In this document: piece by piece, positions 1,343 to 51,915 of the stretch
Position numbering within the stretch: position 1 is the stretch's first letter
Layout: every line of letters starts with the position of its first letter
Assembly (NCBI GenBank): GCA_035906255.1
Contig: JAMIFM010000011.1
Coordinates: forward strand, 39,607-103,606
Direction of reading: 5' to 3'
Origin: Bacteroidia bacterium
GTDB lineage: Bacteria > Bacteroidota > Bacteroidia > UBA8524
DNA: 64,000 nt
Notes under the pieces: model-generated
Seen by the model: the letters and a program-made list of their open reading frames with translations, nothing else
Told to the model about the DNA's origin: nothing
The model's database searches: none
Made by a program: the position numbers and the translations under genes

Positions 1343-1990
1343 TCCATCTGTCCTTCTGAGCGCAGCGAGGAATCTTTATTACAATTGTGTTAACAAAACG
1401 GGATAAGATACTTCCTTCGTCAGCATGACAATACTCCTAAATCCCCTGTGGGGACTTGCTCTTCCCCATGATTACGAGGTCTCCCGAAGCAATCCGTTGA
1501 TATAATAAATACTAAAAAACTGTTGACCATTGACGGTCGACTGTTGACCTGCAAACAGATTACCACGTCATCGTGCCTCCTCCTCGCAATGACGATAGTT
1601 AAGCGAGTGCGGTAAACAACATTTAACTCACCCCAAACAATACACCCTTGCCTGATAATCCAACACTTTCCCTCTCTTTGTAAGAGAGGGGCGAATATCA
1701 GAAAGTCGGCCAAAACAAAAATCGGGGGTGAGTCAAACAGCCCATAAATTCTATTTCGACAAGCTCTGTTCAAGTCCTAAAAGGGAACTTCACCAACGAC
1801 GGGCAAGTGCGGCTGCTATCCTGAGAATGCCGAAGGGTGTAGCTGTTTCCCTCCTTGGGTGGTTAGTGGGCTGGTAAGGAGGGACTAAGGGAGGTGTCAA
1901 ACAGATTGCTTCAAAACCCAAAAGCAGTTTTTCGCAATTACGATAGTTGAGCAAGTGCGGAGCAGTCCTGAGCTTGCCGAAGGGTGTGGC
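1343..1990 (+). repeat. Complete copy of the mosaic intergenic repeat element, modules G-A-B-C-D-E-F, about 650 bp.
   Basis: Shares long near-identical segments with 51325-51915 (same module order), and in reverse complement with 16170-16556, 30456-31290 and 43538-44200. Contains perfect hairpins, for example cccctctctttgtaagagagggg and tccctcctt(N17)aaggaggga. No long ORF. Confidence 0.8.
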
Positions 1991-2002
1991 CGGTTATCTG
2001 AA

Positions 2003-3700
2003 TTAAGATGATTGCGTTTCTTCTTTCTTAAATGCTTGTATCAATACGGCAAACGTAAATACCAGTACGCAGCCGATAAGGTTGAGCCACAAGAAAGATG
2101 TTAAGTCTGTAAGCCATGCGGCAATTACAAACACTTCGCCCAATAGGGCGGCATAAAACACCGCCGTGCCTCTTACGTTCTTAGCAAAAAAGGCAGTGAT
2201 GAAAATGCCCAGTATCACTCCATAAAACAACGAACCGAGAATGTTTACAGCTTCTATCAAATTGCCCAATTTGCCCGCGTATAAGGCCACAATCATACAA
2301 AATACACCCCATGCAACCGTTGCCCATCGCGAAGCATTTAAATAGCGGCGGTCGCTGCCGTTTTTGTGGGTAAACCGTTTGTAAAAATCTACTATATAGG
2401 TGGATGCCAAAGAGTTTAGTCCGCTTGCGGTTGAACCCATTGCAGCTAAAAAGATGATAGCTATCAACAATCCTACCATCCCTGTGGGCAAATAGCGGGT
2501 TACAAACCCTAAAAACACATAGTTACTGTCGTTTTTGTCGGCCAATGGGTTGTGAGCACTGATTATCCTTATAGCAGAATCTCGCACATCATTGGCTTTA
2601 GCATCCGATTGCTGCAAAGCCGCTCGCATTTCGCCTATTTTTACCTCGTTTTCAGTATGTATTGCCTCCACTAAACCGTCAACGTATTGGCGACGTTCGG
2701 CATAGGTATTTTGGTACTGCTGCTCTTGTTCTTTAAATTGTTGGGCATATTTGCTGCTCTCAACTGCATTTACTTCTACACTGTTAAAAAACACAGGCGG
2801 GGTATTAAACTGGTAAAAGGCAAAAACCAACACGCCAATCAGCAGAATAAAGAATTGCATGGGAATTTTCACCAACCCGTTCATTACCAACCCTAAACGA
2901 CTTTGGCTAACGGAACTCCCTGTAAGATAACGACCTACCTGCGACTGGTCGGTACCGAAATACGAAAGCTGCAAGAAAAATCCGCCAATAATACCCGACC
3001 AGATGTTGTAACGGTTGTTTAAGTCGAAAGTAGTATCAATGGCATTCATCCTACCCATTTTACCTGCAATGTGCAATGCATCAGTAAAACCTACTCCTTC
3101 AGGCAACATATAAACCACCATAAAAGCAGCCATAAACAACCCCGAAAAGATGATTATCATTTGGAACATTTGGGTGTATGAAACGGCTTTTGTGCCGCCA
3201 TAAACTGTATATAGTATCACAACACCCCCCATAATAAAGGTGGTGTAAATAATGCTAATATTTAAGATACTTGATAGAATAATGGCCGGAGCATAAATGG
3301 TAATACCTGTTGAAAGTCCGCGTTGCAGTAGAAATAAAAACGCCGTGAGGGCGCGGGTTTTAACATCAAAGCGGTTTTCGAGGTATTCGTATGCGGTATA
3401 AACGTTCAGGTTTTTAAAAATGGGAATAAATACCGCGCATATCAAAATCATGGCCAGCGGCAATCCAAAATAAAACTGCACAAAACGCAATCCATCAGCA
3501 TACCCCAAACCGGGTGCTGATAAAAAGGTAATGGCACTTGCCTGTGTAGCCATTACAGATAAACCTACGTGATACCAAGGTAATTGCTTATCGGCCAGTA
3601 AATACCCTTCAATATTGCGCATACCTCTGCTTTTCCACATTCCGTAAAGGGCTATGAAAAGCAACGTTCCGCCTAATACCGTCCAATCAATCCAGCTCAT
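2003..3700 (-). CDS. Sodium:solute symporter (SSS) family transporter with a ~90 aa hydrophilic central insertion.
   Basis: 565 aa multi-TM protein starting MSWIDWTVLGGTLLFIALYG. Has the SSS signature region and 13 or more hydrophobic segments. A charged coiled-coil-like insert (KYAQQFKEQEQQYQ...DVRDSAI) sits between TM blocks. Confidence 0.8.
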   Translation of the reverse strand: MSWIDWTVLGGTLLFIALYGMWKSRGMRNIEGYLLADKQLPWYHVGLSVMATQASAITFLSAPGLGYADGLRFVQFYFGLPLAMILICAVFIPIFKNLNVYTAYEYLENRFDVKTRALTAFLFLLQRGLSTGITIYAPAIILSSILNISIIYTTFIMGGVVILYTVYGGTKAVSYTQMFQMIIIFSGLFMAAFMVVYMLPEGVGFTDALHIAGKMGRMNAIDTTFDLNNRYNIWSGIIGGFFLQLSYFGTDQSQVGRYLTGSSVSQSRLGLVMNGLVKIPMQFFILLIGVLVFAFYQFNTPPVFFNSVEVNAVESSKYAQQFKEQEQQYQNTYAERRQYVDGLVEAIHTENEVKIGEMRAALQQSDAKANDVRDSAIRIISAHNPLADKNDSNYVFLGFVTRYLPTGMVGLLIAIIFLAAMGSTASGLNSLASTYIVDFYKRFTHKNGSDRRYLNASRWATVAWGVFCMIVALYAGKLGNLIEAVNILGSLFYGVILGIFITAFFAKNVRGTAVFYAALLGEVFVIAAWLTDLTSFLWLNLIGCVLVFTFAVLIQAFKKEETQSS

Positions 3701-3818
3701 TCAAAATACTTGGTAAGCAAATAAAACAAAACCATTAGCGCTGCCAATGTGCCTGCCACCAAAGCATACACATAACCCCATGTTTTAAAGAACGGTGGTT
3801 TTTCTTGGTTATTCTGCA

Positions 3819-7790: not shown

Positions 7791-7829
7791 TCCTATTTGT
7801 TAAACACTACTTATCATTAGCCTCAAAGC

Positions 7830-7838
7830 GTATCTTTG
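7830..7838 (+). promoter_or_regulatory. Candidate Bacteroidetes sigma-A -7 element (TAnnTTTG) immediately upstream of the ddl-like gene. Implies a very short or leaderless 5' UTR.
   Basis: The sequence gcgTATCTTTGcgcc ends about 5 nt before ATG 7843. Matches the established Bacteroidetes -7 consensus TAnnTTTG. No computed scan was done. Confidence 0.3.
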
Positions 7839-7842
7839 CGCC

Positions 7843-10518
7843 GTGATAAAAGTTGGCATATTTTTCGGCGGAGCTTCTCGCGAAAGAGAAGTATCGTTTT
7901 CAGGCGGCAGAACCGTGTATGATAACCTTAATAAGTTATTGTTTGCACCTGTTCCGTTGTTTGTGGATAGCTTTAATACCATTATTCTTTTAAACAAAGA
8001 ACTGATATACAAAGGCAGTATCCGAGATTTTTACCCACCCGTACAATACCTGCCCGAAACACAGCATAATTTTCAAGTATATATCGAAAGTTTAGAAGCC
8101 GATGTTAAAAACGGTAACATAAACTACGAGGAGATGATAGGTCGTATTGGCCGCAAAGTGAATATTGACGAGTTACCACAACTGATTGATATAGCTTTTT
8201 TGGCTTTGCACGGCAGCTATGGCGAAGACGGCACTATACAGGGTTTGCTTGAATGGTTAAAAATTCCCTACACCGGTTCGGGCATTTTACCTTCGGCAAT
8301 AGGTATTAGTAAGGCAATACAAAAACAGTTTTTGCAGGCAGGTGGGTTTGATACCCCAAATTACACGCTGGTAACCCGCAACCAATGGGAAGAAAACCGT
8401 TTAGTTAATACACTTTCGCTTACCTATCCGTTGGTAGTGAAACCTGCCAACCAAGGTTCATCATTGGGAGTTAGTGTAGTAAAAACAGCAGACGAATTAG
8501 CGGCGGCTATTGATAAAGCCTTCTTTAATATTACTGTTACTGCATACGAATGGAATCAATTAAACACACTTCAAAAAATTGAATATGTGCGTTCTGTGTG
8601 CGACATACGCGAAGGATTAGGACTACCGCTATTGTTTAATAATAAGCAGATTAACCTGCCCGACGAGGTATTAAATACTTTCGAACAGGAATTGCAAAAT
8701 GCACCCCATGTTAACTTACAGGCACTGCAAAATGAAAGTGAGGTATTGATAGAGGAGTTTGTAAAAGGTCGTGAATTTTCATGTATTGTTATCAGAGGGC
8801 TGGATGGAAAACCTGTTGCCTTGCCTCCTACCGAAATTGTAAAAGGACAAGAGGTGTTTGATTACCGCTCTAAATACCTGCCCGGATTATCGCGTAAAGT
8901 AACCCCGATTGATTTGCCCGAAGCTCAAATAGAGGCTATTCGTCAAAAAGCACAGCAGCTATACAGCTATTTCAGGTTTAATACTTATGCCCGATTGGAT
9001 GGCTTTATTACTACAGAAGGTAAAATCTTCTTAAACGACCCTAATACCACCTCAGGCATGATGCCCTCGTCATTTTTCTTCCATCAGGCAGCAGAAATAG
9101 GGTTAAACCCCTCACAGTTCCTTACTTATATACTTTATACCAGCTTGAAAGAACGTATTGAAACCAGCATGGAAAACTTCCATTACAAGGCTGTTTTTAA
9201 TCGTTTAGAAACCGAGCTTTCAAATACCGCAAACCAAGCCCAAGAAAAGAAACGCATTGCTGTGGTTATGGGCGGTTATTCTACCGAGCGACATATCTCT
9301 ATGGAGAGCGGACGCAATATTTATGAAAAACTTTCATCATCGCCCAAATACACCCCCGTTCCTGTGTTTTTAACAGGCAGTGACGAATCTTACCAAATGT
9401 ATCTTGTTCCGGTAAGCATGATGCTGAAAGACAATGCCGATGATATTGCCGAGAAGGTGAAAAACTATCACCCCAACCCCTACCTGCAAAAGATTGCCGA
9501 TGAATGCCTGCCTGTTTTGCAGCGTTTCGGTAACGGACAAAAGCACGATGCAACACCTCATTTAATTGGGTTTGAACAATTGGCACAATTAGCCGACGGT
9601 GTATTTATTGCCTTGCACGGAAGACCGGGAGAAGACGGCAACTTGCAAGTACAGCTTGAAAAAGTAGGTTTGCCTTATAACGGTTCAGGGTATTACAGCT
9701 CACAAATCACCATTAATAAGTACGATACTGCTGAATTATTGGCCGCTAACGGATTTTCGGTAGCACCGCACGTATTGGCCAAAAAAGAAGACTGGGCAAC
9801 TGACAGCGCAGCGTTTTATGATAAAATACTGTCGGTTACAGGGCTGCCGATGATTGCAAAACCTGCCGACGACGGGTGTAGCAGTGCGGTGAAAAAGATA
9901 AAAACCCGCGAGGAACTGGATGCTTTTGCCCGTTTGATGTTTAGGGAAACCGAAACCCGTGAGCCTGAATTGGAACAACGATTAAAATTATTACCCAAAG
10001 AGGAGTTTCCGCGTAAAAGTTATTTCTTGGCCGAAAAGTTCATTGACAAATCGGATGCTAAAATATTTTTAGAAGTTACCGGCGGTTTGCTTACCCACCG
10101 GACAGAAAACGGTGGAATACGCTATGAAATGTTTGAACCCAGCGAAACACTGGCCGAAAAAGAAATCCTTTCGCTTGAGGAAAAGTTTTTGGCAGGACAG
10201 GGGCAAAACATTACCCCTGCGCGTTATTCAAAAGAGCCTGTTGAAGACCGCTATATTGCCGATGCGGTGAAAACCGAGTTGGAAAAGGCGGCAAAATTGT
10301 TGAATATTGAAGGCTACGCGCGGATAGATGCTTTTGTAAAAGTACACCACAACAACCAAGTGGAAGTAATATTTATAGAGGTTAATTCGTTGCCCGGTAT
10401 GACCCCCGCTACTTGCATCTTTCATCAAAGTGCATTAAACGGGTATATGCCTTATGATTTTATTGATAAAATATTACAATACGGTTTCACCAAAAACAAT
10501 GCACAGCAAGCAAACTGA
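7843..10518 (+). CDS. ddl: Tandem-duplicated D-alanine--D-alanine ligase-like protein (two complete ATP-grasp Ddl modules in one 891 aa polypeptide).
   Basis: Both halves carry Ddl hallmarks. Module 1 has GGxSxExEVS, HGxxGEDGxxQGLLE and an ATP-grasp core (LVVKPANQGSSLGVSVV, EEFVKGREFSC). Module 2 has RIAVVMGGYSTERHISMESG, LHGRPGEDGNLQ, MIAKPADDGCSSAV and the C-terminal EVNSLPGMT. Module 1 has unusually long inserts. Confidence 0.75.
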   Translation: MIKVGIFFGGASREREVSFSGGRTVYDNLNKLLFAPVPLFVDSFNTIILLNKELIYKGSIRDFYPPVQYLPETQHNFQVYIESLEADVKNGNINYEEMIGRIGRKVNIDELPQLIDIAFLALHGSYGEDGTIQGLLEWLKIPYTGSGILPSAIGISKAIQKQFLQAGGFDTPNYTLVTRNQWEENRLVNTLSLTYPLVVKPANQGSSLGVSVVKTADELAAAIDKAFFNITVTAYEWNQLNTLQKIEYVRSVCDIREGLGLPLLFNNKQINLPDEVLNTFEQELQNAPHVNLQALQNESEVLIEEFVKGREFSCIVIRGLDGKPVALPPTEIVKGQEVFDYRSKYLPGLSRKVTPIDLPEAQIEAIRQKAQQLYSYFRFNTYARLDGFITTEGKIFLNDPNTTSGMMPSSFFFHQAAEIGLNPSQFLTYILYTSLKERIETSMENFHYKAVFNRLETELSNTANQAQEKKRIAVVMGGYSTERHISMESGRNIYEKLSSSPKYTPVPVFLTGSDESYQMYLVPVSMMLKDNADDIAEKVKNYHPNPYLQKIADECLPVLQRFGNGQKHDATPHLIGFEQLAQLADGVFIALHGRPGEDGNLQVQLEKVGLPYNGSGYYSSQITINKYDTAELLAANGFSVAPHVLAKKEDWATDSAAFYDKILSVTGLPMIAKPADDGCSSAVKKIKTREELDAFARLMFRETETREPELEQRLKLLPKEEFPRKSYFLAEKFIDKSDAKIFLEVTGGLLTHRTENGGIRYEMFEPSETLAEKEILSLEEKFLAGQGQNITPARYSKEPVEDRYIADAVKTELEKAAKLLNIEGYARIDAFVKVHHNNQVEVIFIEVNSLPGMTPATCIFHQSALNGYMPYDFIDKILQYGFTKNNAQQAN

Positions 10519-11288
10519 TGGCAAATAAATTCGTTACGGGCTTTTTACATTCAAAATGGTGGGCAAAACTGCTTATAGGCATTGCATCGGTATTACTATT
10601 CTTGCTGGTAATAAATTGGTTGTTGAAATTTATCACCAATCACGGGCAAAGTTTACCCGTGCCTAAAGTAAAGGGATTGGTTTTTGACGAAGCTACCCGT
10701 TTGCTGGATGAAAAAGATTTGCGTTATGTGGTGTTTGATTCGGTGTATGTACCAAAAGCCAAACCCAACCAAGTGGTTGACCAAAACCCGGCTGAGGGTA
10801 CCAAAGTGAAGAAAAACCGCATTGTGTACCTTACCATAAATGCACGACCCGTACCTATTGTGAAGGTACCCGATATTTTGGATATTGGCCTGCGTGAAGC
10901 AGTAAGCAAACTTACTGCCGAAGGTTTGGAAGTGGGCGAAATTACCACCCGTGCCGATTTATCAGTAAACAGGGTATTGGGTATTAGCATCAATGGTAAA
11001 AAAATAAAAGCGGGTGATGCGATTGAAAAGGGAAGTAAGATTGATTTGGTGATAAGCAAAGGCGAGGACGCGAGTGACAAGAATATTGTGATGCCCGATC
11101 TTGCAGGATTAACTTTAGACGAAGCCACAATAGAATTGAGCCTTTTAGGGTTAAATATAGGTGCGGTATCGTACGATAAAAACGTTACCGATAAAATAAC
11201 GTCCAAAATATACCGCCAAACCCCCGATGCGGGTAGAGGTGCCTATATTGGGCAGGAAATTGATTTGTTTTTAAAGCAAAGCGACTAA
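10518..11288 (+). CDS. Membrane-anchored protein with three PASTA domains.
   Basis: Its ATG overlaps the ddl TGA (cTGATGg). N-terminal TM (WAKLLIGIASVLLFLLVINWLL) is followed by three ~65 aa repeats with a PASTA-like pattern (VPxLxGLxxxEAxxxLxxxGL...). 256 aa. Confidence 0.7.
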   Translation: MANKFVTGFLHSKWWAKLLIGIASVLLFLLVINWLLKFITNHGQSLPVPKVKGLVFDEATRLLDEKDLRYVVFDSVYVPKAKPNQVVDQNPAEGTKVKKNRIVYLTINARPVPIVKVPDILDIGLREAVSKLTAEGLEVGEITTRADLSVNRVLGISINGKKIKAGDAIEKGSKIDLVISKGEDASDKNIVMPDLAGLTLDEATIELSLLGLNIGAVSYDKNVTDKITSKIYRQTPDAGRGAYIGQEIDLFLKQSD

Positions 11289-13511: not shown

Positions 13512-13548
13512 AAACTAAAAAAGCCCCAAAACGGGGCTTTTTTAGTTT
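13512..13548. terminator. Bidirectional rho-independent terminator: 15-bp perfect palindrome aaactaaaaagcccc-aaaa-ggggctttttagttt.
   Basis: GC-rich stem flanked by A-runs and T-runs on both strands. Lies between convergent rhodanese and CapA-region genes. An identical copy is at 25716-25750. Confidence 0.6.
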
Positions 13549-13555: not shown

Positions 13556-13612
13556 TTTCGACTTACCATCTTGAGCCTGCCGAAAGAGCCTTGAGCTTGT
13601 CGAAAGGCTTAT
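13556..13612 (+). repeat. Two tandem degenerate copies of the F-module of the mosaic repeat (ccttgagcctgccgaaagag / ccttgagcttgtcgaaagg).
   Basis: Matches ...ccatcttgagcctgccgaagggtg at 51880-51910 and cctgagcttgccgaaggg at 1968-1986. Confidence 0.45.
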
Positions 13613-16169: not shown

Positions 16170-16556
16170 TGTATGTAAGCCCCCCCTCTCCTAAGAGAAA
16201 CACAAAGGGTATATTATGCCAACCGCACCCTTCTGCAAGCTCAGGAGAACTGCCCCGCACTTGCTCAACTATCGTCATTGCGAGGAGGCCGTCTTCGGCT
16301 GACGTGGCAATCTGTTTGCAGCCCACCGTCAATGGTCAACAGTTTTTTAGTATTTAGATTTTAGTGTTTATACCAACGGATTGCTTCGGGAAGACCCTCG
16401 CAATGACGGGGAAGAGCAAGTCCCCACAGGGGATTTAGGGGTATTGTCATGCTGACGTAGGAAGCATTTTTGCGCAACGGGGTAACACAATTGTTATAAG
16501 GTTCTTCGCTGCGCTCAGAAGGACAGTATGGGTTCTTCGGCAAGTTCAGAATACAA
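16170..16556 (-). repeat. Partial mosaic repeat in reverse orientation (F', B', A', G' modules; C, D and E absent).
   Basis: Reverse complement of the segments in 1343-1990, for example caacggattgcttcgggaagaccctcgcaatgacggggaagagcaagtccccacaggggatttagg. Overlaps the spurious ORFs 16127-16357, 16144-16332 and 16361-16543. Confidence 0.75.
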
Positions 16557-25614: not shown

Positions 25615-25715
25615 TCCCCCCTTTAATATAGAGATGAAAGAAGCGGCATAAACGCTGCACTGCCTTATAATTTTATAGAAAACGGAAAAAATAGTTTTTT
25701 CTGTAGAGTTATTAA

Positions 25716-25750
25716 ACTAAAAAGCCCCAAAACGGGGCTTTTTAGTTTAA
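25716..25750. terminator. Second identical copy of the palindromic terminator aaactaaaaagcccc-aaaa-ggggctttttagttt.
   Basis: Identical over about 35 nt to 13512-13548. Directly downstream of the panB stop. Confidence 0.6.
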
Positions 25751-26631
25751 TAACTTTCTTTATCATTGGGAAAATCTCCCAGCTTAATATCTTCGATATA
25801 TCGCTCAGTGGCTACCTTAATATCGTCGTACAAATTCATGTAACGGCGCAAAAAACGTGGGCTAAACTCGCGGGTTATGCCCAGCATATCATGGCTCACC
25901 AGCACTTGCCCGTCAACATGGGGGCCTGCACCTATGCCAATAACAGGTATTTTTACATTTTGTGCTACCGTCTGTGCAAGTTTTGCAGGTATTTTCTCAA
26001 GCACAATAGCAAAGCATCCTGCTTCTGCCAGTAAATTGGCATCTTGAACCAATTTAGCGGCCTCAGCTTCTTCTTTGGCACGTACTTCAAATGTTCCGAA
26101 TTTATAAATAGACTGGGGTGTTAAGCCCAAGTGTCCCATTACGGGCACACCTGCTGAAAGAATACGCCTTACCGATTCTAAAATCTCTTCACCACCTTCT
26201 AATTTAATAGCGTGCGCTCCCGCTTCTTTCATAATACGGATGGCACTGTTTAATGCCTCTTTGCTATTACCCTGATAAGAACCGAAAGGCAAATCAACTA
26301 CTACCAACGCACGGAAAACAGCTCTAACAACCGATGCCGCATGGTATATCATTTGGTCGAGAGTAATAGGCAAGGTGGTCATGTGTCCTGCCATTACATT
26401 TGATGCTGAATCACCTACCAACAACACATCAATTTTTGCTTCATCAAAAATTTTTGCCATGCTGTAATCGTAAGCGGTGAGCATACTTATCTTCTCACCC
26501 CGCTCCTTCATCTCCTGCAACACGTGGGTGGTTACCCTTGTTATTTCTTTGTATTTGTTGGTAGTCATAAAGAGTACAAATATACGGCTATCCCATTCAG
26601 TAATATCAGCTAAGATTTTTGCTATTAGCAA
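25747..26631 (-). CDS. panB: 3-methyl-2-oxobutanoate hydroxymethyltransferase.
   Basis: [15 protein letters not shown] and the [10 protein letters not shown]-equivalent region ([13 protein letters not shown]) are PanB signatures. The true start is probably the internal Met at about 26566 (MTTNKYKEI). Confidence 0.9.
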
Positions 26632-30352: not shown

Positions 30353-30455
30353 GGGTCAGTAAAAATAAGGCTTTTACCTATAAGACAGTTAATACGCTCA
30401 AAAAGCTGTACCCGTTTTATTTTTTTACAATCGATTACCAAACCGCCCTTCTTAT

Positions 30456-31290
30456 CGCACCCTTCGACAAACTCTATCCTTAAACAGGCTCAGGATGGCA
30501 GCCGCACTGCTACGTTGTTGGTGGAGTTCCCTTTAGGGATTGAACAGAGCTTGTTGAAATAGAATTTAGGGGCTGTTTGACTCACCCCTGATTTTTGTTT
30601 TGGTCGATTTTCTGATATTCGCCCCTCTCTTACAAAGAGAGGGGAAGTGTTGGGTTATCAGACAAGGTTGATATGTTTTGGGTGAGTTAAATGTTTGTCT
30701 GCCGCACTCGCACAACTATCGTAATTGCGAAAAACCGCTTTTGGGTTTTGAAGCAATCCGTTTGACACCTCCCTTAGTCCCTCCTTACCAGCCCACTAAC
30801 CATCCAAGGAGGGAAACAGCCGCACCCTTCGGCATTCTAAGGATGGCAGCCGCACTGGTACGTTGTTGGTGAAGTTCCCTTTAGGGCTTGAACAGAGCTT
30901 GTCGAAGTATAATTTAGGGACTGTTTGACTCACCCCTGATTTTTGTTTTGGTCGACTTTCTAATATTCGCCCCTCTCGTACAAAGAGAGGGGCGAATATC
31001 AGGCAAGGTTGAGCTGTTTTGGGTGAGTTAAATGTTTGTCTGCCATACTTGCTTCACTATCGTCATTGCGAGGAAGCCTTCTTCGGCTGACGTGGTAATC
31101 TGTTTGCAGGTCAACAGTCCACCGTCAATGGTCAACAGTTTTTTAGTATTTAGATTTTAGTGTTTATACCAACGGATTGCTTCGGAAGACCTCGCAATGA
31201 CGGGGAAGAGCAAGTCCCCACAGGGGGATTTAGGAGTATTGTCATGCTGACGTAGGAAGCAGCTTATCCCGTTTTGATAACACAATTTAA
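30456..31290 (-). repeat. Extended mosaic-repeat array (about 835 bp) in reverse orientation, with a local tandem duplication of the D'-C' modules.
   Basis: 30480-30660 and 30830-31010 are near-identical (caggatggcagccgcactg...ttccctttaggg...tgactcacccctgatttttgttttggtcga...cccctctc(g/t)tacaaagagagggg). They are followed by B', A' and G' fragments. Overlaps the spurious ORFs 30678-30872 and 30344-30562. Confidence 0.8.
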
Positions 31291-31396
31291 CCGCTCTTAA
31301 TCATTACTTTCCAACCGAAGGGTTGAGCCTGTTTGGTATAAAATACGGCACCACTACCCCAAAAAACCGATAATTTAGCGAAAAAAATTTACCACG

Positions 31397-33244: not shown

Positions 33245-33298
33245 CCGCTCAGCTACGCCACCTCTTTACTTTTTGATTTTTAATCACTTATTAGTTAA

Positions 33299-33460
33299 CA
33301 TCAGCATGACAATACCCCTAAATCCCCTGTGGGGACTTTACCAACGACGGGCAAGTGCGGCTGTTTCCCTCCTTGGGTGGTTAGTGGGCTGGTAAGGAGG
33401 GACTAAGGGAGGTGTCAAACGGATTGCTTCAAAACCCAAAAGCGGTTTTTCGCAATGACG
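33299..33460 (+). repeat. Short mosaic repeat copy (A fragment plus E module).
   Basis: tcagcatgacaatacccctaaatcccctgtgggg followed by ...ggctgtttccctccttgggtggttagtgggctggtaaggagggactaagggaggtgtcaaacggattgcttcaaaacccaaaagcggtttttcgcaatgacg. Overlaps the spurious ORF 33168-33395. Confidence 0.75.
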
Positions 33461-33618
33461 AAAATCGAAACACAAGCTCAAATCGAACATCGTTAAATCC
33501 TGAGATTATTTTATTTCCAAAGAAAATTGGCCTTCGAAGTACCGGCTAACTAAAACTAATCCCACTTCTTCAATAAGGAAAATCAAAATAACTTTTAAGT
33601 GTTTCAAATAATTTATAA

Positions 33619-34551
33619 TTGCAACCCAGGAGTTGCACTATGACACCAATATTTGAAGAATTTACCAAAAGTTATTTAATAGCGAAAAAAGAATCGTTTG
33701 CAAACAATGAAACTGCTAATTTATTTAGACACAAATTACCTCAACAAGTAAATCAATTAATCAATAGCAACAGTAGATACAAAATTGCTGGTTCAGTCGG
33801 AAAAGGTAATTGGGCAGACTGCCCTTGGATTGCAATTCTAGATTTGCTAATAACTGATAGCCCACAGTCAGGATATTATCCAGTATTCCTATTTCAGGCA
33901 GACATGAAGGGATTTTATTTATCTTTAAATCAAGGCGTCACTGAAATTAGAAATTACTACAAACACAACACAAAAGAGGTTTTATCTGTAAGAGCTACGG
34001 ATTTTAGGGCTAAAGTTAGTACTGATAATTCTCTTTTGAAGAAAATTGAACTTAACTCTAAAACTGAAAATGCAAAACTATATGAAGCAGGGAATATTTT
34101 TGCCAAATATTATAGCTCAAGTGAGCTCCCTGACAATAAAACCCTTTCCAATGACATACTTTATTTCTTAAACCTATACGATGAACTAATCAATAATGAT
34201 CAAAATATAAATGAAAACGACGAATTAACGGCTTATGAAAGTAAGAAACGTAAATTGCACTATCGGGTTGAAAGAAATAGATATATTTCTTTAAAAGTAA
34301 AAAAGAGAAAGGGATATACCTGTGAAGTTTGTGATTTCAACTTTACAACTAAATATGGTGCTTTAGGTAAAGACTTTATTGAAACTCATCATCTAATACC
34401 TATTTCAACACTAGAACTAGGGAAGTTCAAAGTTAATTTAGCTGATGATTTTGCTGTTTTATGTAGCAACTGTCATCGCATGATTCATAGACTACAAGAT
34501 ACAAGTAATATTAAAGCATTAAGGGCCATAGTTAAAAACAATAGAAAATAA
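33619..34551 (+). CDS. MrcB-N (DUF3578)-HNH nuclease, a type IV (modification-dependent) restriction-like protein.
   Basis: The N-terminal region has the DUF3578/MrcB_N hallmark KIAGSVGKGNWADCPWIAILD. The C-terminus is HNH (CEVCDF...ETHHLIPIS...CSNCHRMIH). The gene is visibly AT-richer than its neighbours. The true start is probably the Met at 33640. Confidence 0.65.
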   Translation: MQPRSCTMTPIFEEFTKSYLIAKKESFANNETANLFRHKLPQQVNQLINSNSRYKIAGSVGKGNWADCPWIAILDLLITDSPQSGYYPVFLFQADMKGFYLSLNQGVTEIRNYYKHNTKEVLSVRATDFRAKVSTDNSLLKKIELNSKTENAKLYEAGNIFAKYYSSSELPDNKTLSNDILYFLNLYDELINNDQNINENDELTAYESKKRKLHYRVERNRYISLKVKKRKGYTCEVCDFNFTTKYGALGKDFIETHHLIPISTLELGKFKVNLADDFAVLCSNCHRMIHRLQDTSNIKALRAIVKNNRK

Positions 34552-34935
34552 CTACCCCGCCAACTCCTCAAACAATTGATTAAGTTTCTTTTCAGGGTTG
34601 GTGCAAAGGCCGGGGTGCACTTTTGAAGTTTGCAATACCGTGCTGCGGTTGGCTGTGAGCCAACGGAACCGTGAGGGTAAATCCAGCTGGGCAATGGGGC
34701 CGCCATCTGCATCGCCGCGACAAACCTTCTCAAATCCTTGTAAATAATTTTCTACTTCCGTAGGTTCAATAACAGGGCAAAAAGCCTTTAAACGGTCGGC
34801 ATCCAGTACATAACGCATTTGTAAAAACTTATGCTTTTTGCAAAACAATATTACCCCCACATTAATAAACTCTTCGCGCTCCACACGGGGCACAATGCGT
34901 ATCACCGCATACTCAAACAAGTGGTTATCTTGCAT
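34552..34935 (-). CDS. DUF3037 domain protein.
   Basis: 127 aa. Conserved N-terminal block FEYAVIRIVPRVEREEFINVGVILF is typical of DUF3037 (recollection). Overlaps the upstream kinase gene by 11 nt. Confidence 0.55.
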   Translation of the reverse strand: MQDNHLFEYAVIRIVPRVEREEFINVGVILFCKKHKFLQMRYVLDADRLKAFCPVIEPTEVENYLQGFEKVCRGDADGGPIAQLDLPSRFRWLTANRSTVLQTSKVHPGLCTNPEKKLNQLFEELAG

Positions 34936-35755
34936 TTTCTGCCTCCTTCACAAAAATATCCGATGCCTGCAAACGTGCGGTTAAAAAACCGTTATATACC
35001 TCACGGCGGCTTTCGGCCGTTTCGTCAATAGTGTTTTCAAGCAACCACTCATCGGGTACTTGTGCCACAATTCCCCTGATGATTTCAGGGGTAAGTATCC
35101 GCCTAAACTCATCATTCACACTTTCAAGTTCAGTCGCTCGGCGCAACAACACATGGTCTTTCACTTGCACAAACGGTTTTTTAGCTTGCTCCTCCCAATT
35201 GTCCCACGAGTGGTGAAAATACAGCGATGCACCGTGGTCTATCAACCACAACTCTTTATGCCACCATAGCATATTGGTATTGCGAGCCGTGCGGTCAACA
35301 TTCGTAAGCAAACTATCCAACCACACAATTTTAGAAGACAATAACGGGTCTATCAGCGTTACCGCAGGGTCGTAGGTCATACTTCCTTGCAGGTAATGTA
35401 CGCCCAAATTCAACCCCTCACTTTTGCGCAGCAATTCTTGTATTTCCTCATCGCCTTCGGTGCGACCAAAATCCGCATCCAAATGGGCAAATACCATTTC
35501 GGGTACTTTAAAACCTAACACTCGGGCAATTTCTCCGCCTATAAAATCAGCAATCAACGATTTCACCCCCTGCCCTGCCCCTCTAAACTTAAGCACATAC
35601 AAAAAATCATCATCAGCCTCGGCAATGGCAGGCAAAGAACCGCCTTCGCGAAGCGGGGTAACGTACCGCACAACATTTACATGGCGGGGAGATGTAAGCA
35701 CTTTTGTCATCACAATAAATTTTTCATCTACAGCGTACTGTGTATGATAAGGCAA
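34925..35755 (-). CDS. HipA-like / PI3-4-kinase-superfamily atypical kinase.
   Basis: Catalytic-loop-like TNVDRTARNTN and IDHG (DFG-like) motifs spaced as in HipA/PI3K-fold kinases. 276 aa. Glycine-rich loop LKFRGAGQG. Confidence 0.5.
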   Translation of the reverse strand: MPYHTQYAVDEKFIVMTKVLTSPRHVNVVRYVTPLREGGSLPAIAEADDDFLYVLKFRGAGQGVKSLIADFIGGEIARVLGFKVPEMVFAHLDADFGRTEGDEEIQELLRKSEGLNLGVHYLQGSMTYDPAVTLIDPLLSSKIVWLDSLLTNVDRTARNTNMLWWHKELWLIDHGASLYFHHSWDNWEEQAKKPFVQVKDHVLLRRATELESVNDEFRRILTPEIIRGIVAQVPDEWLLENTIDETAESRREVYNGFLTARLQASDIFVKEAENAR

Positions 35756-36947: not shown

Positions 36948-37100
36948 GTCAGTATGTTCAACCTTTTGTTCCCCTGTCATTCCGAGACGCAGCGAGGAAA
37001 CTTATTGCACGCGTGTTAACAAAACGCGATAAGTTGCTTCCTACGTCAGCATGACACGGCTATACGTCATTCCGAGGGTCTCTCCGAAGCAATCACACAT
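36948..37100 (+). repeat. Short mosaic repeat (G module plus degenerate A fragments).
   Basis: cctgtcattccgagacgcagcgaggaaacttattgcacgcgtgttaacaaaacgcgataagttgcttcctacgtcagcatgaca...cgtcattccgagggtctctccgaagcaatc matches the G/A modules of 1343-1440. Confidence 0.6.
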
Positions 37101-43521: not shown

Positions 43522-43537
43522 TACTTCCTAAGCCTAC

Positions 43538-44200
43538 TAAAGGGTGCGGCGGTGGTTGGTAAGGAGTGATTAAATTATATTAACAAACGGGATAAGATGC
43601 TTCCTACGTCAGCATGACAATACTCCTAAATCCCCTGTGGGGACTTTACCAACGACGGGCAAGCGCGGCTGCCCTCCTGAGAATGCCGAAGGGTGCGGCT
43701 GTTTCCCTCCTTGGGTGGTTAGTGGGCTGGTAAGGAGGGACTAAGGGAGGTGTCAAACGGATTGCTTCAAAACCCGAAGATGGTTTTTCGCAATGACGAT
43801 AGTTGAGCGAGTGCGGCAGACAACATTTAACTCACCCAAAACAGCTTAACCTTGTCTGATAACCCAACACTTCCCCTCTCTTTGTAAGAGAGGGGCGAAT
43901 ATCAGAAAGTCGGCCAAAACAAAAATCAAGGGTGAGTCAAACAGCCCCTAAATTCTACTTCAACAAGCTCTGTTCAAACCCTAAAGGGAACTTTACCAAC
44001 GACGTACCATGCGGCAGATTTCCTGAGCTTGCCGAAGGATAGTGCCTGCTAAAGGGTGCGGCGGTGGTTGGTAAGGAGTGATTAAATTATATTAACAAAC
44101 GGGATAAGATGCTTCCTACGTCAGCATGACAATACACCTAAATCCCCTGTGGGGACTTGCTCTTCCCCGTTATTGCGAGGCCTATCCGAAGCAATCAGCT
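43538..44200 (+). repeat. Mosaic repeat array (G, A, E, B-end, C, D modules plus a second G-A copy), about 660 bp.
   Basis: The 60-nt block cctactaaagggtgcggcggtggttggtaaggagtgattaaattatattaacaaacgggataagatgcttcctacgtcagcatgacaata occurs twice (43538 and 44052). Internal modules are near-identical to 1343-1990 and 51325-51915. Overlaps the spurious ORF 44126-44365. Confidence 0.8.
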
Positions 44201-45548: not shown

Positions 45549-45881
45549 TTGCACATGAACCCATACCCAAGCCCGCAGGCTGCCCTTGATGATTTTAGCA
45601 GGGTGATTGACCAACTTGCTGCCGATTTACAATTGTATGCCGCCCGACAGCAGCCCAACTACACCTACATGGATAAGCAAAATATGCTGATACGCCACCT
45701 TACCGAGATATACAATGGCATTACTACCCTGCAACACTATGATGCTTGGACGGCTGTTGAAACCCGAATGCTAAGCTTTGTGCGGCAAGACGCTAACCTT
45801 TGCGGACACATGATACGCTTGCGCACAAAACCCGAAGGGAATAATTTTTCGCTGATTGGATATGACCCGTTTAACCCCTAA
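45549..45881 (+). CDS. Hypothetical small protein.
   Basis: 110 aa ORF with reasonable codon usage. No motifs. Confidence 0.35.
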   Translation: MHMNPYPSPQAALDDFSRVIDQLAADLQLYAARQQPNYTYMDKQNMLIRHLTEIYNGITTLQHYDAWTAVETRMLSFVRQDANLCGHMIRLRTKPEGNNFSLIGYDPFNP

Positions 45882-45882
45882 C

Positions 45883-45990
45883 TTATACTTCGACAAGTTC
45901 TGTACAAGTCTTAAAGGGAACTTTACGCACTACGAACGAGTGTGGTAGTTTCCTGAGCTTGCCGAAGGGTGCGGAGGAAGGCTTCGGAAA
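45883..45990 (+). repeat. Isolated D-module copy of the mosaic repeat.
   Basis: cttatacttcgacaagttctgtacaagtcttaaagggaactttacgcactacgaacgagtgtggtagtttcctgagcttgccgaagggtgcgg matches the D module (1749-1850, 51668-51760). Confidence 0.7.
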
Positions 45991-47783: not shown

Positions 47784-47821
47784 GCAGGCAATTTACAAAT
47801 TGTTATTTTTGATACGTTAAA

Positions 47822-48811: not shown

Positions 48812-48835
48812 GCTTATACCTCCCTGTTCTTCTTA

Positions 48836-49030
48836 CCGCACCCTTTAGCAGGCACTATCCTTCGGCATTCTCAGGATGGCAGCCGCGCTTGCCCGTCGTT
48901 GGTAAAGTCCCCACAGGGGATTTAGGGGTATTGTCATGCTGAGCGATAGCGAAGCACCTTATCCCGCTTTGTGAACACAGTTGTTATAAGGTTCTTCGCT
49001 GCGCTTAGAAGGACAGAGAGGGGCGAAGTT
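48836..49030 (-). repeat. Mosaic repeat in reverse orientation (D'-end, A', G').
   Basis: cagcaggcactatccttcggcattctcaggatggcagccgcgcttgcccgtcgttggtaaagtccccacaggggatttaggggtattgtcatgctga...gttcttcgctgcgcttagaaggacag. Confidence 0.75.
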
Positions 49031-50014: not shown

Positions 50015-50021
50015 CTACGGG

Positions 50022-50771
50022 TTAATCACCCCCTCCGCATCCTGAGCATCCGCTACAACCCGAATCGCCGTCTCCCGAACTGCCTGATGAGCCTGAATCG
50101 CTGCCAAAAGCGGCATCAAACCCACCTGTTGACCCACTGTCAAAATACCCGAAGTCCGTTCCGTAATAGGCTCCGCCGCCCGTTATTACCCCTGCGGCTT
50201 CGTTGCGTTTCAATTCATCATCAAATACCGTTAAATACTCACTGCTAAAATTAGGCAACAGTATAATGTTATTACCTAATAGTGCTCTAATTTCACCATC
50301 CTGCTTGTTTAGTTTATACTTTTCGTCTGCGTTTTTAATAACTGTATTAAGTTCAGTTGCAACATCAACTCCGGCAGGGGTATATGTATAGCCGCCTATT
50401 AAGACACGTTGCAACCAAGTGCGGTAAAAAAGACCACCTATATGAGGGGTTTGGGCTATTTGTCGCTTAAACCGTTTGGTGAGGGGCCTTATTATGGTAA
50501 TGTAATTTTTTAGTGAGGCTTGCAATCCCTCATTAAATCTAAAAGAGTTTAAAAAACTTTCTTCGTATGCAGATGCTTTGTAGTTATTGTAATTAGGCCC
50601 TGAGCTTACATACGGGTATTTTGCATTGTTTTTCTCAACCTCCACAATAGTAAGCACGCCTTTAAGCAGTAAATCCATAAAGGTGTACCGTATAAATAAT
50701 TTATGGGTGGTATTGCCTTTACTTATAATAAAACTGGTTTCAGCCGGTGTAAGTGATTTTAATAACTCCAT
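50022..50771 (-). CDS. Hypothetical protein with a C-terminal Gly/Ser/Cys-rich tail.
   Basis: 249 aa. C-terminus is ...GGGAYYGTDFGYFDSGSTGGFDAAFGSDSGSSGSSGDGDSGCSGCSGCGGGD. Separated by 4 nt from the upstream DUF1399-like gene. Confidence 0.4.
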   Translation of the reverse strand: MELLKSLTPAETSFIISKGNTTHKLFIRYTFMDLLLKGVLTIVEVEKNNAKYPYVSSGPNYNNYKASAYEESFLNSFRFNEGLQASLKNYITIIRPLTKRFKRQIAQTPHIGGLFYRTWLQRVLIGGYTYTPAGVDVATELNTVIKNADEKYKLNKQDGEIRALLGNNIILLPNFSSEYLTVFDDELKRNEAAGVITGGGAYYGTDFGYFDSGSTGGFDAAFGSDSGSSGSSGDGDSGCSGCSGCGGGD

Positions 50772-50775
50772 ACAT

Positions 50776-51279
50776 TTAGTTAGGTTTTCGTATCAGCCAA
50801 AACCTGTGCCTGTTTACACGGGTAAAATTAGTTTCTTTAAATCGGATTTTTGCAGCAGGCCAAAGGTGTGTAGGCGGTGTTTTTCCAAAATGTTTTTCAT
50901 ACTCAGCAAACGTTAGGGCATACCAATCAGTAAACTTTTCGCCTTCCGCTATTCCGCCCTCGGTAGGAGTATGGTGTATAATTTGCTGCAATATTTTAGG
51001 GCAAAATACATCCCAATACTCACGGGTATATAATAAGTGTAAATGCCATACTTGGTCTATCTCGTCGCTTGGTGTGAGTGGTTTATTACTTACACACAGC
51101 AAAAACATAAACTTTTTATATTCGTGTATAGCTTCGAGGGCAAAAGCCAAATCCCAATTGTTTTCTCTTGCCAGCCTTGCACTAAACGGAAACGCAGCAG
51201 CAGGGTTATCAGGGTCATAATCCAGCAAGCGTTGCCACAAAGGGTTCTCTGTTATCATTTTATTGAGATTATAATACAA
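50776..51279 (-). CDS. DUF1399 / GRDP (glycine-rich domain protein)-like domain protein.
   Basis: The motif DEIDQVWHLHLLYTREYWDVFC matches the DxDLIWHxHxLxPxxY...C signature I recall for DUF1399. 167 aa. Confidence 0.5.
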   Translation of the reverse strand: MYYNLNKMITENPLWQRLLDYDPDNPAAAFPFSARLARENNWDLAFALEAIHEYKKFMFLLCVSNKPLTPSDEIDQVWHLHLLYTREYWDVFCPKILQQIIHHTPTEGGIAEGEKFTDWYALTFAEYEKHFGKTPPTHLWPAAKIRFKETNFTRVNRHRFWLIRKPN

Positions 51280-51324
51280 TTTTAGAGTTTATTATTTAGA
51301 GTTTAGTTACCTGTACCGCTCCTC

Positions 51325-51915
51325 TGTCAGCATGACAATACCTCTAAATCCCCTGTGGGGACTTGCTCTTCCTCGTCATTGCGAGGTCTTCCGAAGCAAT
51401 CCGTTGGCATAAACACTAAAATCTAAATACTAAAAAACTGTTGACCATTGACGGTCGACTGCTGACCTGCGAGCAGATTGCCACGTCAGCCGAAGACGGC
51501 CTCCTCGCAATGACGATAGTTGAGCGAGTGCGGCAGACAACATTTAACTCACCCAAAACATCCCAACCTTGCTTGATAACCCAACACTTCCCCTCTCTTT
51601 GTAAGAGAGGGGCGAATGTCAGAAAGTCGACCAAAACAAAAATCAGGGGTGAGTCAAACAGCCTCCCTAAATTCTACTTCGACAAGCTCTGTTCAAGCCC
51701 TAAAGGGAACTTCAACAACGACGTACCAGTACGGCTGCCATCCTGAGAATGCCGAAGGGTGCGGCTGTTTCCCTCCTTGGGTGGTTAGTGGGCTGGTAAG
51801 GAGGGACTAAGGGAGGTGCCAAACGGATTGCTTCAAAACCCAAAAGCGGTTTTTCGCAATGACGATAGTTGAGCAAGTGCAACAGCCATCTTGAGCCTGC
51901 CGAAGGGTGCGGTTG
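51325..51915 (+). repeat. Second complete mosaic repeat copy (A-B-C-D-E-F), about 590 bp.
   Basis: Collinear and highly similar to 1400-1990. Overlaps the spurious ORFs 51416-51634, 51441-51746 and 51616-51810. Confidence 0.85.

Follow-up and report, generated by a model that had tools for sequence, protein, structure and literature searches.

What are the palindrome-rich blocks that recur between the genes along a 64,000-nucleotide chromosomal stretch of a Bacteroidia bacterium (Bacteroidota; lineage UBA8524; contig JAMIFM010000011.1, positions 39,607 to 103,606), and how are they shuffled from site to site? A first-pass annotation of this stretch, which is called the window throughout, had described an apparently undescribed family of about seven modules in invariant order at ten or more intergenic loci and had suggested nested non-autonomous mobile elements, structured small RNAs (sRNAs) or protein-binding sites as possible roles. 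We find that the ten loci are new, lineage-specific arrays of repetitive extragenic palindromes (REPs), made up of a variant of the CGTC-tagged REP, and not a new kind of element. The explanation that we prefer, and to which we assign a probability of roughly 60%, is that these are DNA-level mosaic arrays of the same type as REP clusters and the mosaic elements found between genes in Neisseria (NIMEs), turned over by hairpin- and microhomology-mediated recombination.

Ten intergenic loci share a dense family of repeats

BLAST searches against the whole window, with positions 1331-2000 and 51301-51930 as queries, showed that ten loci, all of them intergenic, hold blocks in common at 78 to 99% identity. 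The two copies that had been taken as complete (1343-1990 and 51320-51921) are 87.4% identical over 594 nt, and the minus strand of 30696-31287 supplies a third copy that is 87 to 91% identical to them. Partial copies, at 78 to 99% identity and with E-values down to 1e-100, lie at 16214-16531, 33298-33461, 36974-37056, 43532-44196, 45875-45974 and 48829-49017. In a self-BLAST of the whole window the repeated intervals totaled 3,898 nt, of which the repeat family accounts for approximately 3.6 to 3.7 kb (5.7 to 5.9%) and a few terminator-like hairpins for the rest. When reference pieces were mapped onto the whole window, no match to any module was detected outside the ten loci. The family is real, and its density, about 6% of a 64-kb chromosomal stretch, is striking.

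Much of the first-pass annotation was borne out: the ten intergenic loci with common modules, the share of about 6%, the presence of blocks on both strands, the perfect stem-loops (cccctctctt-tgta-agagagggg, tccctcctt-N17-aaggaggga, cccc-tgt-gggg and gccg-aaga-cggc) and the recurring sub-motif cctgag..gccgaaggg were all recovered. The module order, which had been thought invariant even in partial copies, is not fixed, because E-b'' stands before C-D in array c43 and a second C-D block (T-C-D-A'-c) is found in array c30 (arrays are listed in Table 1); related genomes show yet other block orders. The seven modules do recur as blocks, but a description in terms of small tagged hairpins and the stretches that separate them suits the loci better than one of seven equivalent units. 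The locus at 13556-13612 is real but holds only two small hairpins of the type called (c) below. As had also been noted, the copies carry no open reading frame (ORF) much beyond 100 codons. The ORFs within them, of 117 amino acids (1420-1773, minus strand) and 101 amino acids (51441-51746), had no Pfam match and no homologue among 5.8 billion proteins, and a protein-coding remnant was rejected on this basis.

Four of the array sites lie between convergent genes, five between tandem genes and one between divergent genes. The genes of the window are ordinary Bacteroidota chromosomal genes, several cargo proteins of the type IX secretion system (T9SS) among them, and the sole RNA gene is a tRNA-Arg (57153-57227). 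No transposase, integrase or recombinase Pfam domain was detected in the approximately 49 ORFs of the window.

A tagged hairpin marks the block boundaries

One small hairpin, in three flavours, recurs at nearly every block boundary. At its 5' side an unpaired tag (CGTC or TGTC) precedes a 5-bp stem whose first pairs are A-T and T-A. There follow an internal loop of tandem G.A (GA opposite GA or GAA, that is, 2x2 or 2x3), an inner stem of 2 to 7 bp, a loop of 3 to 6 nt and a short tail; nine positions are stacked if the G.A pairs are counted. Flavour (a) reads TGTC-(A/C)TTCT-GA-GCGCAGC-GA-AGAA, flavour (b) CGTC-ATTGC-GA-GG tctt CC-GAA-GCAAT-CC, and flavour (c) (A/T)G(T/C)C-ATCCT-GA-G..TGC-CGA-AGGGT. 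The A5-U and U6-A pairs were present in 40 to 41 of 41 distinct aligned hairpins; the (a) copies of the window are mutated to CT..AAC. The tag is CGTC in b, b' and b'' and TGTC in a and a', while that of c is AGTC in the related contig L184 and has decayed to TGCC or CCCT in the window. In the window, copies of b have the tail CCG, CAG or CAC and copies of a the tail CTT; the tails of environmental copies are CCA, CTC or CCC. A reading of the GAG...CGAA core as a hammerhead ribozyme or kink-turn was rejected on inspection, as there is no CUGANGA box and no 3-nt bulge.

The hairpins form inverted pairs with the tags outside (HH dimers) that enclose conserved spacers, as in G, b-Bsp-b' and b...b''. 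Module G comprises two (a)-type hairpins (TGTC...GACA) around a spacer of about 30 nt, and b-Bsp-b' comprises two (b) hairpins (CGTC...GACG) around Bsp, a conserved AT-rich spacer of 71 nt. A further inverted (b), designated b'', has its loop enlarged to 20 nt with a small hairpin of its own inside; the loop of b' is likewise of about 20 nt. The other segments between tagged hairpins are T-C-D-A', of about 200 nt, and E, of 56 nt; module A, a further small hairpin that is also dispersed, is likewise placed between the dimers. Partial copies end exactly at hairpin ends (c33 at ...cgcaatgacg; c43 and c36 at ...cgaagcaatc), and the remaining junctions fall at the short direct repeats GGGRACTT (end of A and A') and GTGCGGC (end of T and c). 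Nineteen of the 55 occurrences of GTGCGG in the window are inside arrays, all 19 in the array sense orientation. The G+C content is 52% in the hairpins, 47% in the rest of the arrays and 42% in the window. Bsp is the only segment with a deep trough, and a regular wave was not seen.

A covariance model, R1, was built from 24 hairpins from IMG/VR, none of which came from the source clade. In the window it gave 17 matches with E<1 (E-values are approximate because calibration was shortened), and all 17 were inside the ten loci. Eleven matches were obtained in 27 kb of two sister genomes, whereas in 86.7 kb from other Bacteroidota no match had an E-value below 1.3. R1 also detected flavour (a), although the stem TTCT/AGAA is absent from the training set. 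Across 88 unique loop segments that the search pattern had left free, the inner stem averaged 2.39 contiguous pairs, compared with 0.67 +/- 0.09 for shuffled segments, and in environmental hairpins it is built from many different sequences. In an alignment that had been fitted to R1, and hence is biased towards the structure (A3), 98.4% of cells pair compared with 84.3% after shuffling, with 0 of 500 shuffles reaching the observed 98.4%, and compensatory changes occur at three pairs.

Related genomes carry arrays of different content at the same sites

Our data comprised the 64 kb of the source genome, one short contig of a strain of the same species and a few tens of kb from four other related lineages; the relatives were reached by way of flanking proteins and of a single pattern scan of metagenomes. 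Arrays stand at the sites of the window arrays in five related lineages too, with different content. In the metagenome-assembled genome (MAG) L002, whose genes are 81% identical to those of the window at the nucleotide level, the array at the c1 site (G b A c E' b'' T c) measures 327 bp, compared with 648 bp in the window; at its c13 site, L002 has a hairpin of the same type, oppositely oriented. Every lineage examinable at the c48 site (L309, L184, L304 and L306-308; 97% to 75% identity) has an array there, each time with different content. The c51 array of strain L309, which is 96.6% identical to the window, starts without module A. Exactly at the b'' position of the window, L304 carries (7817-7843) a hairpin resembling dRS3, the inverted repeat of NIMEs: cgtcATTCCCGC-gcgg-GCGGAAAT (cgtcATTCCCGCgcggGCGGAAAT).

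All three observed ends of syntenic blocks are at arrays (L002 at c1, L184 at c48 and at c51), for which the probability by chance is about 0.01, with n=3 only and with arrays in about 10 of the approximately 48 gaps between genes. In three lineages the array on the c51 side adjoins three different genes; its edge is inside a truncated hairpin, and where an M28 peptidase gene, presumably the ancestral neighbour, has been kept, this array is missing. Short-read assemblies also break within arrays. The arrays thus coincide with breaks of both synteny and assembly, and therefore matter for binning and assembly and, biologically, as rearrangement hot spots. Copies of E-b'' are 95 to 99% identical within the window and 75 to 92% identical to copies in other genomes, which indicates amplification or homogenisation within each genome. 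Among the relatives examined, we found no clean pair of filled and empty sites for a single hairpin; the junction sequences differ on both sides.

Could such changes arise with no dedicated mobility at all? The arrays would then be old fixtures of their sites that change by slippage, by microhomology-mediated deletion or duplication and by gene conversion, possibly with DNA uptake from relatives. The occupancy of the c48 site in all examinable lineages, down to 75% nucleotide identity, speaks for this alternative, as do the recurrent junctions at the short direct repeats GGGRACTT, GTGCGGC and GTC and the homogenisation of copies within one genome; no transposase was found in the window ORFs or with an HUH regex on 1.9 Mb of hairpin-bearing loci, and Bentley et al. 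propose recombination for NIMEs (PMC1797815). However, it leaves unexplained why the same 25- to 30-nt hairpins occupy at least 10 sites in 64 kb, why they occur in unrelated phyla and in phage contigs and why arrays sit at junctions with three different c51-side neighbour genes. We consider it unlikely that the arrays change in this way alone.

Two further observations concern the relatives. In L306 (MAG GCA_053551035.1) a further array with C, D and A' lies at 11059-11191, about 3 kb beyond the array orthologous to c48; the long segments are therefore shared down to about 75% nucleotide identity in genes. The record of L002 (CALRQL020000015.1) is titled 'Agrobacterium sp. 719_389', and the bin looks mislabelled or contaminated because it is 81% identical to, and over 12 kb collinear with, the Bacteroidota window.

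The palindromes are a property of the DNA

A second alternative is a structured RNA family, in which the composites or their modules are transcribed and selected as sRNAs, stabilisers of 3' untranslated regions, terminators or insulators. The fold of c51 as plus-strand RNA is indeed far more stable than that of shuffled sequences (z = -5.9), but the minus strand folds as well (z = -5.3), and folding as DNA gave z = -5.1. Single mismatches in the outer stem comprised 13 G.T and 9 A.C, with no excess of G.U over A.C; given these counts and the like folding of both strands, strand-specific selection on RNA was rejected. The positions of the arrays bear on this alternative in both directions. Seven of nine arrays are oriented as the upstream gene, and six abut stop codons without a recognisable terminator; two arrays, in contrast, are antisense to both neighbouring genes, and in four cases the array stands past the neighbouring gene's intrinsic terminator. 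Also in favor of an RNA are the small hairpins that lie 15 to 30 nt upstream of start codons in phage contigs and the argument of Di Nocera et al. that many REPs are transcribed (PMC3733652); against it, module order in the arrays is shuffled within and between genomes.

Searches of Rfam returned only the tRNA-Arg for the window at the gathering score, only terminator-like noise outside the array for c51 at E<=1, and nothing relevant for 11 hairpin-bearing loci and the tandem hairpin array. The Rfam match that had been named at the outset as a possible refutation was thus not found in the window, in c51 or in the hairpin-bearing loci. With equal folding of the strands, no G.U/A.C asymmetry, no Rfam match and copies in both orientations, the sRNA role suggested earlier received no positive support, and we judge a structured RNA family to be very improbable. 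There is no sign of selection on one transcribed strand, and the palindromy is a property of the DNA.

The tagged hairpins number nine on each strand, and a replication-linked orientation bias was rejected on these counts. The cumulative GC skew falls steadily over 1-64000, and the window therefore covers one replichore, with a C-rich plus strand.

The small hairpins are widespread and the long segments belong to one clade

The tagged hairpin is present in more than 150 IMG/VR contigs overall. The exact pattern GTCATTGCGAG-N4-16-GAAGCAATC was found in at least 120 contigs, GTCNTTCTGAGCGCAGCGAAGAA in 36 and the (c) core in only 2. The environmental copies take three forms: a solitary unit of about 27 nt, often 15 to 30 nt upstream of the start codon of a phage gene; inverted doublets like module G, between structural genes; and tandem arrays with a 33-nt period. 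In BLAST searches of PLSDB plasmids, the consensus of hairpin (b) matched Novosphingobium, Methylobacterium, Methylosinus, Legionella and cyanobacteria, with at least 40 places in one Novosphingobium megaplasmid and further matches in N. aromaticivorans, and the consensus of hairpin (a) matched cyanobacteria (plasmids) and Granulicella.

The hairpin of module A (ctaaatCCCCtgtGGGGactt) reads CCCC-N3-GGGG-ATTTA-GGGG on the opposite strand. The pattern AAGT-CCCC-N3-4-GGGG-ATTTA-GGGG (other strand) was found in at least 120 IMG/VR contigs; many of these matches represent one orthologous prophage site, and among the matches listed 18 AGT-prefixed copies occur in 14 different contexts. The 21-mer of module A had 0 matches in GTDB species genomes. 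The cores of segments E and C were absent from IMG/VR by pattern scan, and c51 as a whole had no BLAST match in PLSDB plasmids or GenBank phages, so that known plasmid or phage sequence was rejected as its source. A literature search for the hairpin sequence and its would-be peptides returned primers only or nothing. The small hairpins thus have a cosmopolitan distribution, and the long segments are those of the uncultured clade. The label 'apparently undescribed' therefore holds for the longer segments (Bsp, C, D and E), which have no match in Rfam, GenBank phages, PLSDB or IMG/VR, but not for the rest, as the small hairpins fit most features of CGTC-tagged REPs (PMC3733652) and the architecture has a precedent in NIMEs (PMC1797815).

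The tagged hairpin, and with it the small CCCC/GGGG/GGGG hairpin of the A type, might conceivably be a still-active, cross-phylum mini mobile element travelling on phages, although we think this doubtful. If so, this Bacteroidota clade would be a natural system in which to find the missing mobilising enzyme of the 'orphan' CGTC REPs. The abundance of the hairpins in environmental phage contigs hints at how one palindrome family came to distant phyla. A transposase beside the hairpins in phage contigs was rejected, the ORFs between inverted hairpins being phage structural or spurious, and a regex for the HUH-Y1 signature gave one implausible match only in the 1.9 Mb of hairpin-bearing loci.

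Two variants of the small hairpins were also seen. A nested form, GCGAG-GAGCGAAGCGAC-GAAGC, repeats the GA/GA(A) internal loop twice (IMG/VR, e.g. L027:7062-7093 and L038:5455-5486); the commonest loop contains GCGAAGC, which is the sequence of an exceptionally stable DNA mini-hairpin. In a second small motif, a C-run and a loop are followed by two G-runs with (A/C)T(T/A)A between them (e.g. CCCCCTTTAGAAAAGGGGGACTAAGGGGG), such that the 5' arm could pair with either G-run. It was seen in modules A and E of the window, both of this type, and in L038:3285-3305, L058, L137 and L138.

Proposed turnover by hairpin- and microhomology-mediated recombination

The arrays contain tagged hairpins and HH dimers, their junctions lie at hairpin ends or short direct repeats, their sites are conserved with variable content, and they are associated with synteny breaks. 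For these reasons we favor DNA-level mosaic arrays that turn over by recombination, at the probability given above. The hairpins would extrude in single-stranded or cruciform DNA and may be the points at which DNA is cut and rejoined or at which replication switches template. A segment between two hairpins could thereby be duplicated or lost, change its orientation or reach another site that bears a hairpin. Either an enzyme that is encoded elsewhere and acts in trans or the recombination system of the host on its own may be responsible. Candidate enzymes would be an IS110-type recombinase, as for dRS3, or a Y1/HUH TnpA_REP-like protein, the latter in view of subclass 2.6 of TnpA_REP, which is specific to Bacteroidetes and has atypical REP structures (PMC6006769). 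The arrays would most likely be selfish or neutral passengers of the gaps beyond terminators that, as side effects, rearrange the genome and possibly influence the 3' ends of mRNAs.

Cut-and-paste transposition would offer another route to the same mosaics. According to this alternative, the blocks are miniature inverted-repeat transposable elements (MITEs), non-autonomous transposons moved by the DDE transposase of an insertion sequence elsewhere, and composites arose by nested insertion. Both b-Bsp-b' and G are bounded by inverted repeats of 11 to 13 nt (e.g. CGTCATTGCGAGG...CCTCGCAATGACG around Bsp), as MITEs would be; these repeats, however, are complete self-folding hairpins that also occur singly (c36, the b of c43, L002 and L184), and the same hairpins are found as solitary 27-nt units in hundreds of unrelated contigs. 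The blocks occur alone, combined and in both orientations, the copies are 87 to 99% alike, as after recent spread, and assemblies break in them, all of which agrees with nested MITEs. In contrast, no direct repeat indicative of a target-site duplication was found at the flanks of c1, c33, c36, c48 and c51 or of the b-Bsp-b' units, no transposase was detected in the window or, by HUH-motif regex, in 1.9 Mb of hairpin-bearing loci, and Di Nocera et al. found none with this REP class (PMC3733652). We judge nested MITEs to be very improbable. Of the three roles first suggested, nested non-autonomous mobile elements nevertheless came nearest, short of a target-site duplication and of a cognate transposase in the window.

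Several points count against recombining arrays of CGTC-tagged REPs. The model R1 misses flavour (c), whose putative membership is based on the AGTC-AT tag in L184 and the common GAG..CGAA core. The hairpin is made of 5 bp, a G.A loop and 2 to 3 bp and is not an uninterrupted stem of 8 to 9 bp, and the loops of b' and b'' are of about 20 nt as against 4 to 5. The link to the CGTC REPs was set on a published text description and common host taxa, not on a consensus sequence. The synteny argument rests on three breakpoints, and with no clean filled/empty pair transposition as such is not demonstrated. The evidence base is limited to 64 kb, one short strain contig and a few tens of kb from four lineages. 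Finally, no mobilising enzyme was found, and everything that follows the statement that hairpins mark junctions is therefore what we infer.

Catalogue of arrays and neighboring genes

Table 1. Arrays, tagged hairpins and segment hairpins. Positions are those of the window, except for contigs named in the position column; R1 scores are in bits.
Feature	Position	Strand	Block string, setting or basis
Array c1, 648 bp	1343..1990	+	G A b Bsp b' T C D c E b'' T c; between convergent Nramp-Usp and SSF genes
Array c13	13556..13612	+	mini-array, two tandem (c)-type hairpins just beyond bidirectional terminator
Array c16	16214..16556	-	(c-like) G A b Bsp(short) b' T c; downstream of Aldedh gene terminator
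Array c30, 849 bp	30448..31296	-	G(3' part) A b Bsp b' C D A' c E b'' T C D A' c*; divergent intergenic region
Array c33	33298..33461	+	A c(5' part) E b''; ends exactly at tag
Array c36	36974..37100	+	diverged G (HH dimer), solitary b hairpin; between two convergent terminators
Array c43	43532..44196	+	G A c E b'' T C D A' c* G A b; order unlike c1, c51
Array c45	45875..45990	+	D(3' half) A' c
Array c48	48829..49017	-	G A c (c* tail)
Array c51, 602 bp	51320..51921	+	truncated G remnant, A b Bsp b' T C D A' c E b'' T c; downstream of heme-oxygenase terminator
Hairpin (a), TGTC tag, left arm of G	1349..1376	+	R1 17.1, E 0.061
Hairpin (b), tag decayed to catg	1471..1495	+	R1 12.6, E 0.75
Hairpin (b'), CGTC tag, right partner of b-Bsp-b' HH dimer	1556..1594	-	R1 17.9, E 0.039
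Hairpin (b''), 20-nt loop with own small hairpin	1902..1942	-	R1 19.9, E 0.013
Hairpin (b')	16273..16314	+	R1 23.6, E 0.0017
Hairpin (b)	16377..16408	-	R1 33.4, E 7e-6
Hairpin (a)	16498..16525	-	R1 15.8, E 0.12
Hairpin (b'')	30720..30760	+	R1 18.8, E 0.024
Hairpin (b')	31061..31102	+	R1 17.6, E 0.046
Hairpin (b)	31173..31202	-	R1 33.2, E 8e-6
Hairpin (b'')	33420..33460	-	R1 26.9, E 2.8e-4
Hairpin (a) variant, TGTCATTCCGAG..GGAA	36975..37003	+	R1 11.6, E 1.3; sequence
Hairpin (b), solitary	37065..37096	+	R1 24.1, E 0.0013
Hairpin (b'')	43758..43798	-	R1 26.9, E 2.8e-4
Hairpin (b), its 3' end = end of array c43	44168..44198	+	R1 24.9, E 8e-4
Hairpin (a'), right arm of G, weak match	48932..48965	+	R1 8.8, E 6; sequence
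Hairpin (a), left arm of G, weak match	48988..49015	-	R1 8.8, E 6; sequence
Hairpin (b)	51374..51403	+	R1 33.2, E 8e-6
Hairpin (b'), loop holds gccg-aaga-cggc hairpin	51474..51515	-	R1 23.6, E 0.0017
Hairpin (b'')	51824..51864	-	R1 26.9, E 2.8e-4
(c)-type hairpin, ..tCCTGAGaatgCCGAAGGgtg	1816..1841	+	regex and sequence
(c)-type hairpin	1963..1988	+	regex
(c)-type hairpin	13566..13591	+	regex
(c)-type hairpin, ccttgagcttgtcgaaagg	13589..13607	+	sequence
(c)-type hairpin	16224..16249	-	regex
(c)/(a)-like hairpin, attcTGAACTTGCCGAAGAAc	16529..16554	-	regex
(c)-type hairpin, interrupted (c*)	30473..30498	-	regex
(c)-type hairpin	30821..30846	-	regex
(c)-type hairpin	43672..43697	+	regex
(c)-type hairpin, c* form tcct..agga	44018..44043	+	regex
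(c)-type hairpin	45948..45973	+	regex
(c)-type hairpin, c* form	48854..48879	-	regex
(c)-type hairpin	51738..51763	+	regex
(c)-type hairpin	51886..51911	+	regex
Module A hairpin, ctaaatCCCCtgtGGGGactt	1437..1457	+	sequence
Module A hairpin	16418..16438	-	sequence
Module A hairpin	31212..31233	-	sequence
Module A hairpin	33318..33338	+	sequence
Module A hairpin	43626..43646	+	sequence
Module A hairpin	44138..44158	+	sequence
Module A hairpin	48905..48925	-	sequence
Module A hairpin	51344..51364	+	sequence
Segment C central hairpin, ccctctcttTGTAagagagggg	1670..1691	+	sequence
Segment C hairpin	30622..30643	-	sequence
Segment C hairpin	30970..30991	-	sequence
Segment C hairpin	43874..43895	+	sequence
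Segment C hairpin	51591..51612	+	sequence
Segment E, tCCCTCCTT-N17-AAGGAGGG-acta-AGGGAGG	1846..1901	+	block mapping
Segment E	30761..30816	-	block mapping
Segment E	33364..33419	+	block mapping
Segment E	43702..43757	+	block mapping
Segment E	51768..51823	+	block mapping
Tagged hairpins in IMG/VR phage contigs, examples	L156:4231-4258, L159:3832-3859, L097:8244-9165, L163:9401-9494, L068:2695-2818		

Among the genes of the window, directly after c33 lies a cluster of a McrB-N-like protein, a DUF3037 protein and a HipA-like kinase (33619-35755), which may be a defence or toxin-antitoxin islet. Two unusual fusions were observed, an Nramp transporter with a universal stress protein domain (1-1338) and an 891-amino-acid protein with two D-Ala-D-Ala ligase modules (7843-10518). 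Near-identical bidirectional terminator hairpins (aaaaagccccaaaacggggcttttt) stand behind two unrelated genes at 13512-13548 and 25707-25755, outside the repeat family.

Comparison with known repeat systems

The superfamily of CGTC-tagged REPs was defined by Di Nocera, De Gregorio and Rocco (2013, BMC Genomics 14:522; PMC3733652). Its stated features are a 5' tetranucleotide CGTC (variants TGTC and CCTC), a stem of 8 to 9 bp that opens with A-T and T-A, a loop of 4 to 5 nt with exceptions in loop size, and a 3-nt unpaired tail with the consensus CCA. According to the same paper, these REPs are mostly HH dimers with conserved spacers of 20 to 100 bp, located mainly between unidirectional or convergent genes; they occur in five phyla including Bacteroidetes, and also in alpha-proteobacteria, with N. 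aromaticivorans a listed host; large clusters are rare except in Neisseria and Wolbachia, class CGTC-1 includes dRS3, and no transposase was found tied to them (PMC3733652). The tagged hairpin of the window fits most of the defining features, a link made from this text description and from common host taxa. The tag, the A-T/T-A start of the stem, the short tail, the HH dimers, the gene setting and the absence of an adjacent transposase in the window are all alike, and the consensus of (a) and of (b) was found in some of the same host groups. Unlike the CGTC REPs, however, the window hairpins have a stem interrupted by a conserved GA/GA(A) loop, b' and b'' have 20-nt loops with a hairpin of their own, and most copies in the window are clustered in large arrays. 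To our knowledge, no transposase has ever been tied to CGTC REPs.

For the architecture of the arrays the nearest precedent is that of the NIMEs, in which 20-bp dRS3 inverted repeats flank more than 100 families of 50- to 150-bp RS elements (Bentley 2007; PMC1797815). NIME arrays keep their chromosomal position between genomes while repeat number and length vary, they have been linked to recombination, and as of that publication they had not been seen outside Neisseria (PMC1797815). The dRS3 repeat has been tied to an IS110-type recombinase and to Neisseria filamentous phages, its hairpin being the integration site of the phage recombinase (PMC1797815). As in NIMEs (see also Parkhill 2000), where the segments are of about 19 to 214 bp, inverted-repeat hairpins in the window are separated by repeated segments of several families to form arrays; these stand at syntenic positions with variable content and are associated with rearrangement, and the hairpins are richer in G+C than the segments. 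In contrast to NIMEs, the host is a T9SS-bearing member of the Bacteroidota, the segments have no sequence in common with RS elements, and no regular G+C wave was seen. The window hairpins read ATTGC..GCAAT or (A/C)TTCT..AGAA (also ATTCT..AGAAT), not ATTCCC-N8-GGGAAT as in dRS3, and only the L304 hairpin is dRS3-like.

The arrays also resemble the REPs and bacterial interspersed mosaic elements (BIMEs) of Escherichia coli and the REPIN-RAYT systems of Pseudomonas: all are extragenic palindromes with a 5' tetranucleotide, inverted doublets and mosaic intergenic clusters, and inverted doublets of the REPIN type can fold as one long hairpin, as here. The likeness to E. coli BIMEs drawn in the first-pass annotation was correct in kind, since these are mosaic clusters of REP-type hairpins interleaved with other repeats. 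Here, however, the tag is CGTC or TGTC and not GTAG, no BIME linker types, integration host factor (IHF) sites or gyrase sites are present as sequence, no repeat-flanked RAYT gene lies within the 64-kb window, and the passenger segments are much longer. Cyanobacteria harbour small dispersed repeats nested in other repeats, as reported by Elhai et al. in 2008 (Genome Res), and Nezha MITEs as well. Hairpin repeats of about 21 to 27 nt inside other repeats, in nested mosaics, would be a likeness to these small dispersed repeats, which we mention as a lead only.

These comparisons extend NIME-like arrays to the Bacteroidota and connect phage contigs with the family of CGTC REPs. A lineage in which even near-identical strains differ in their dense arrays is a good place in which to seek the mobility mechanism of the CGTC REPs.

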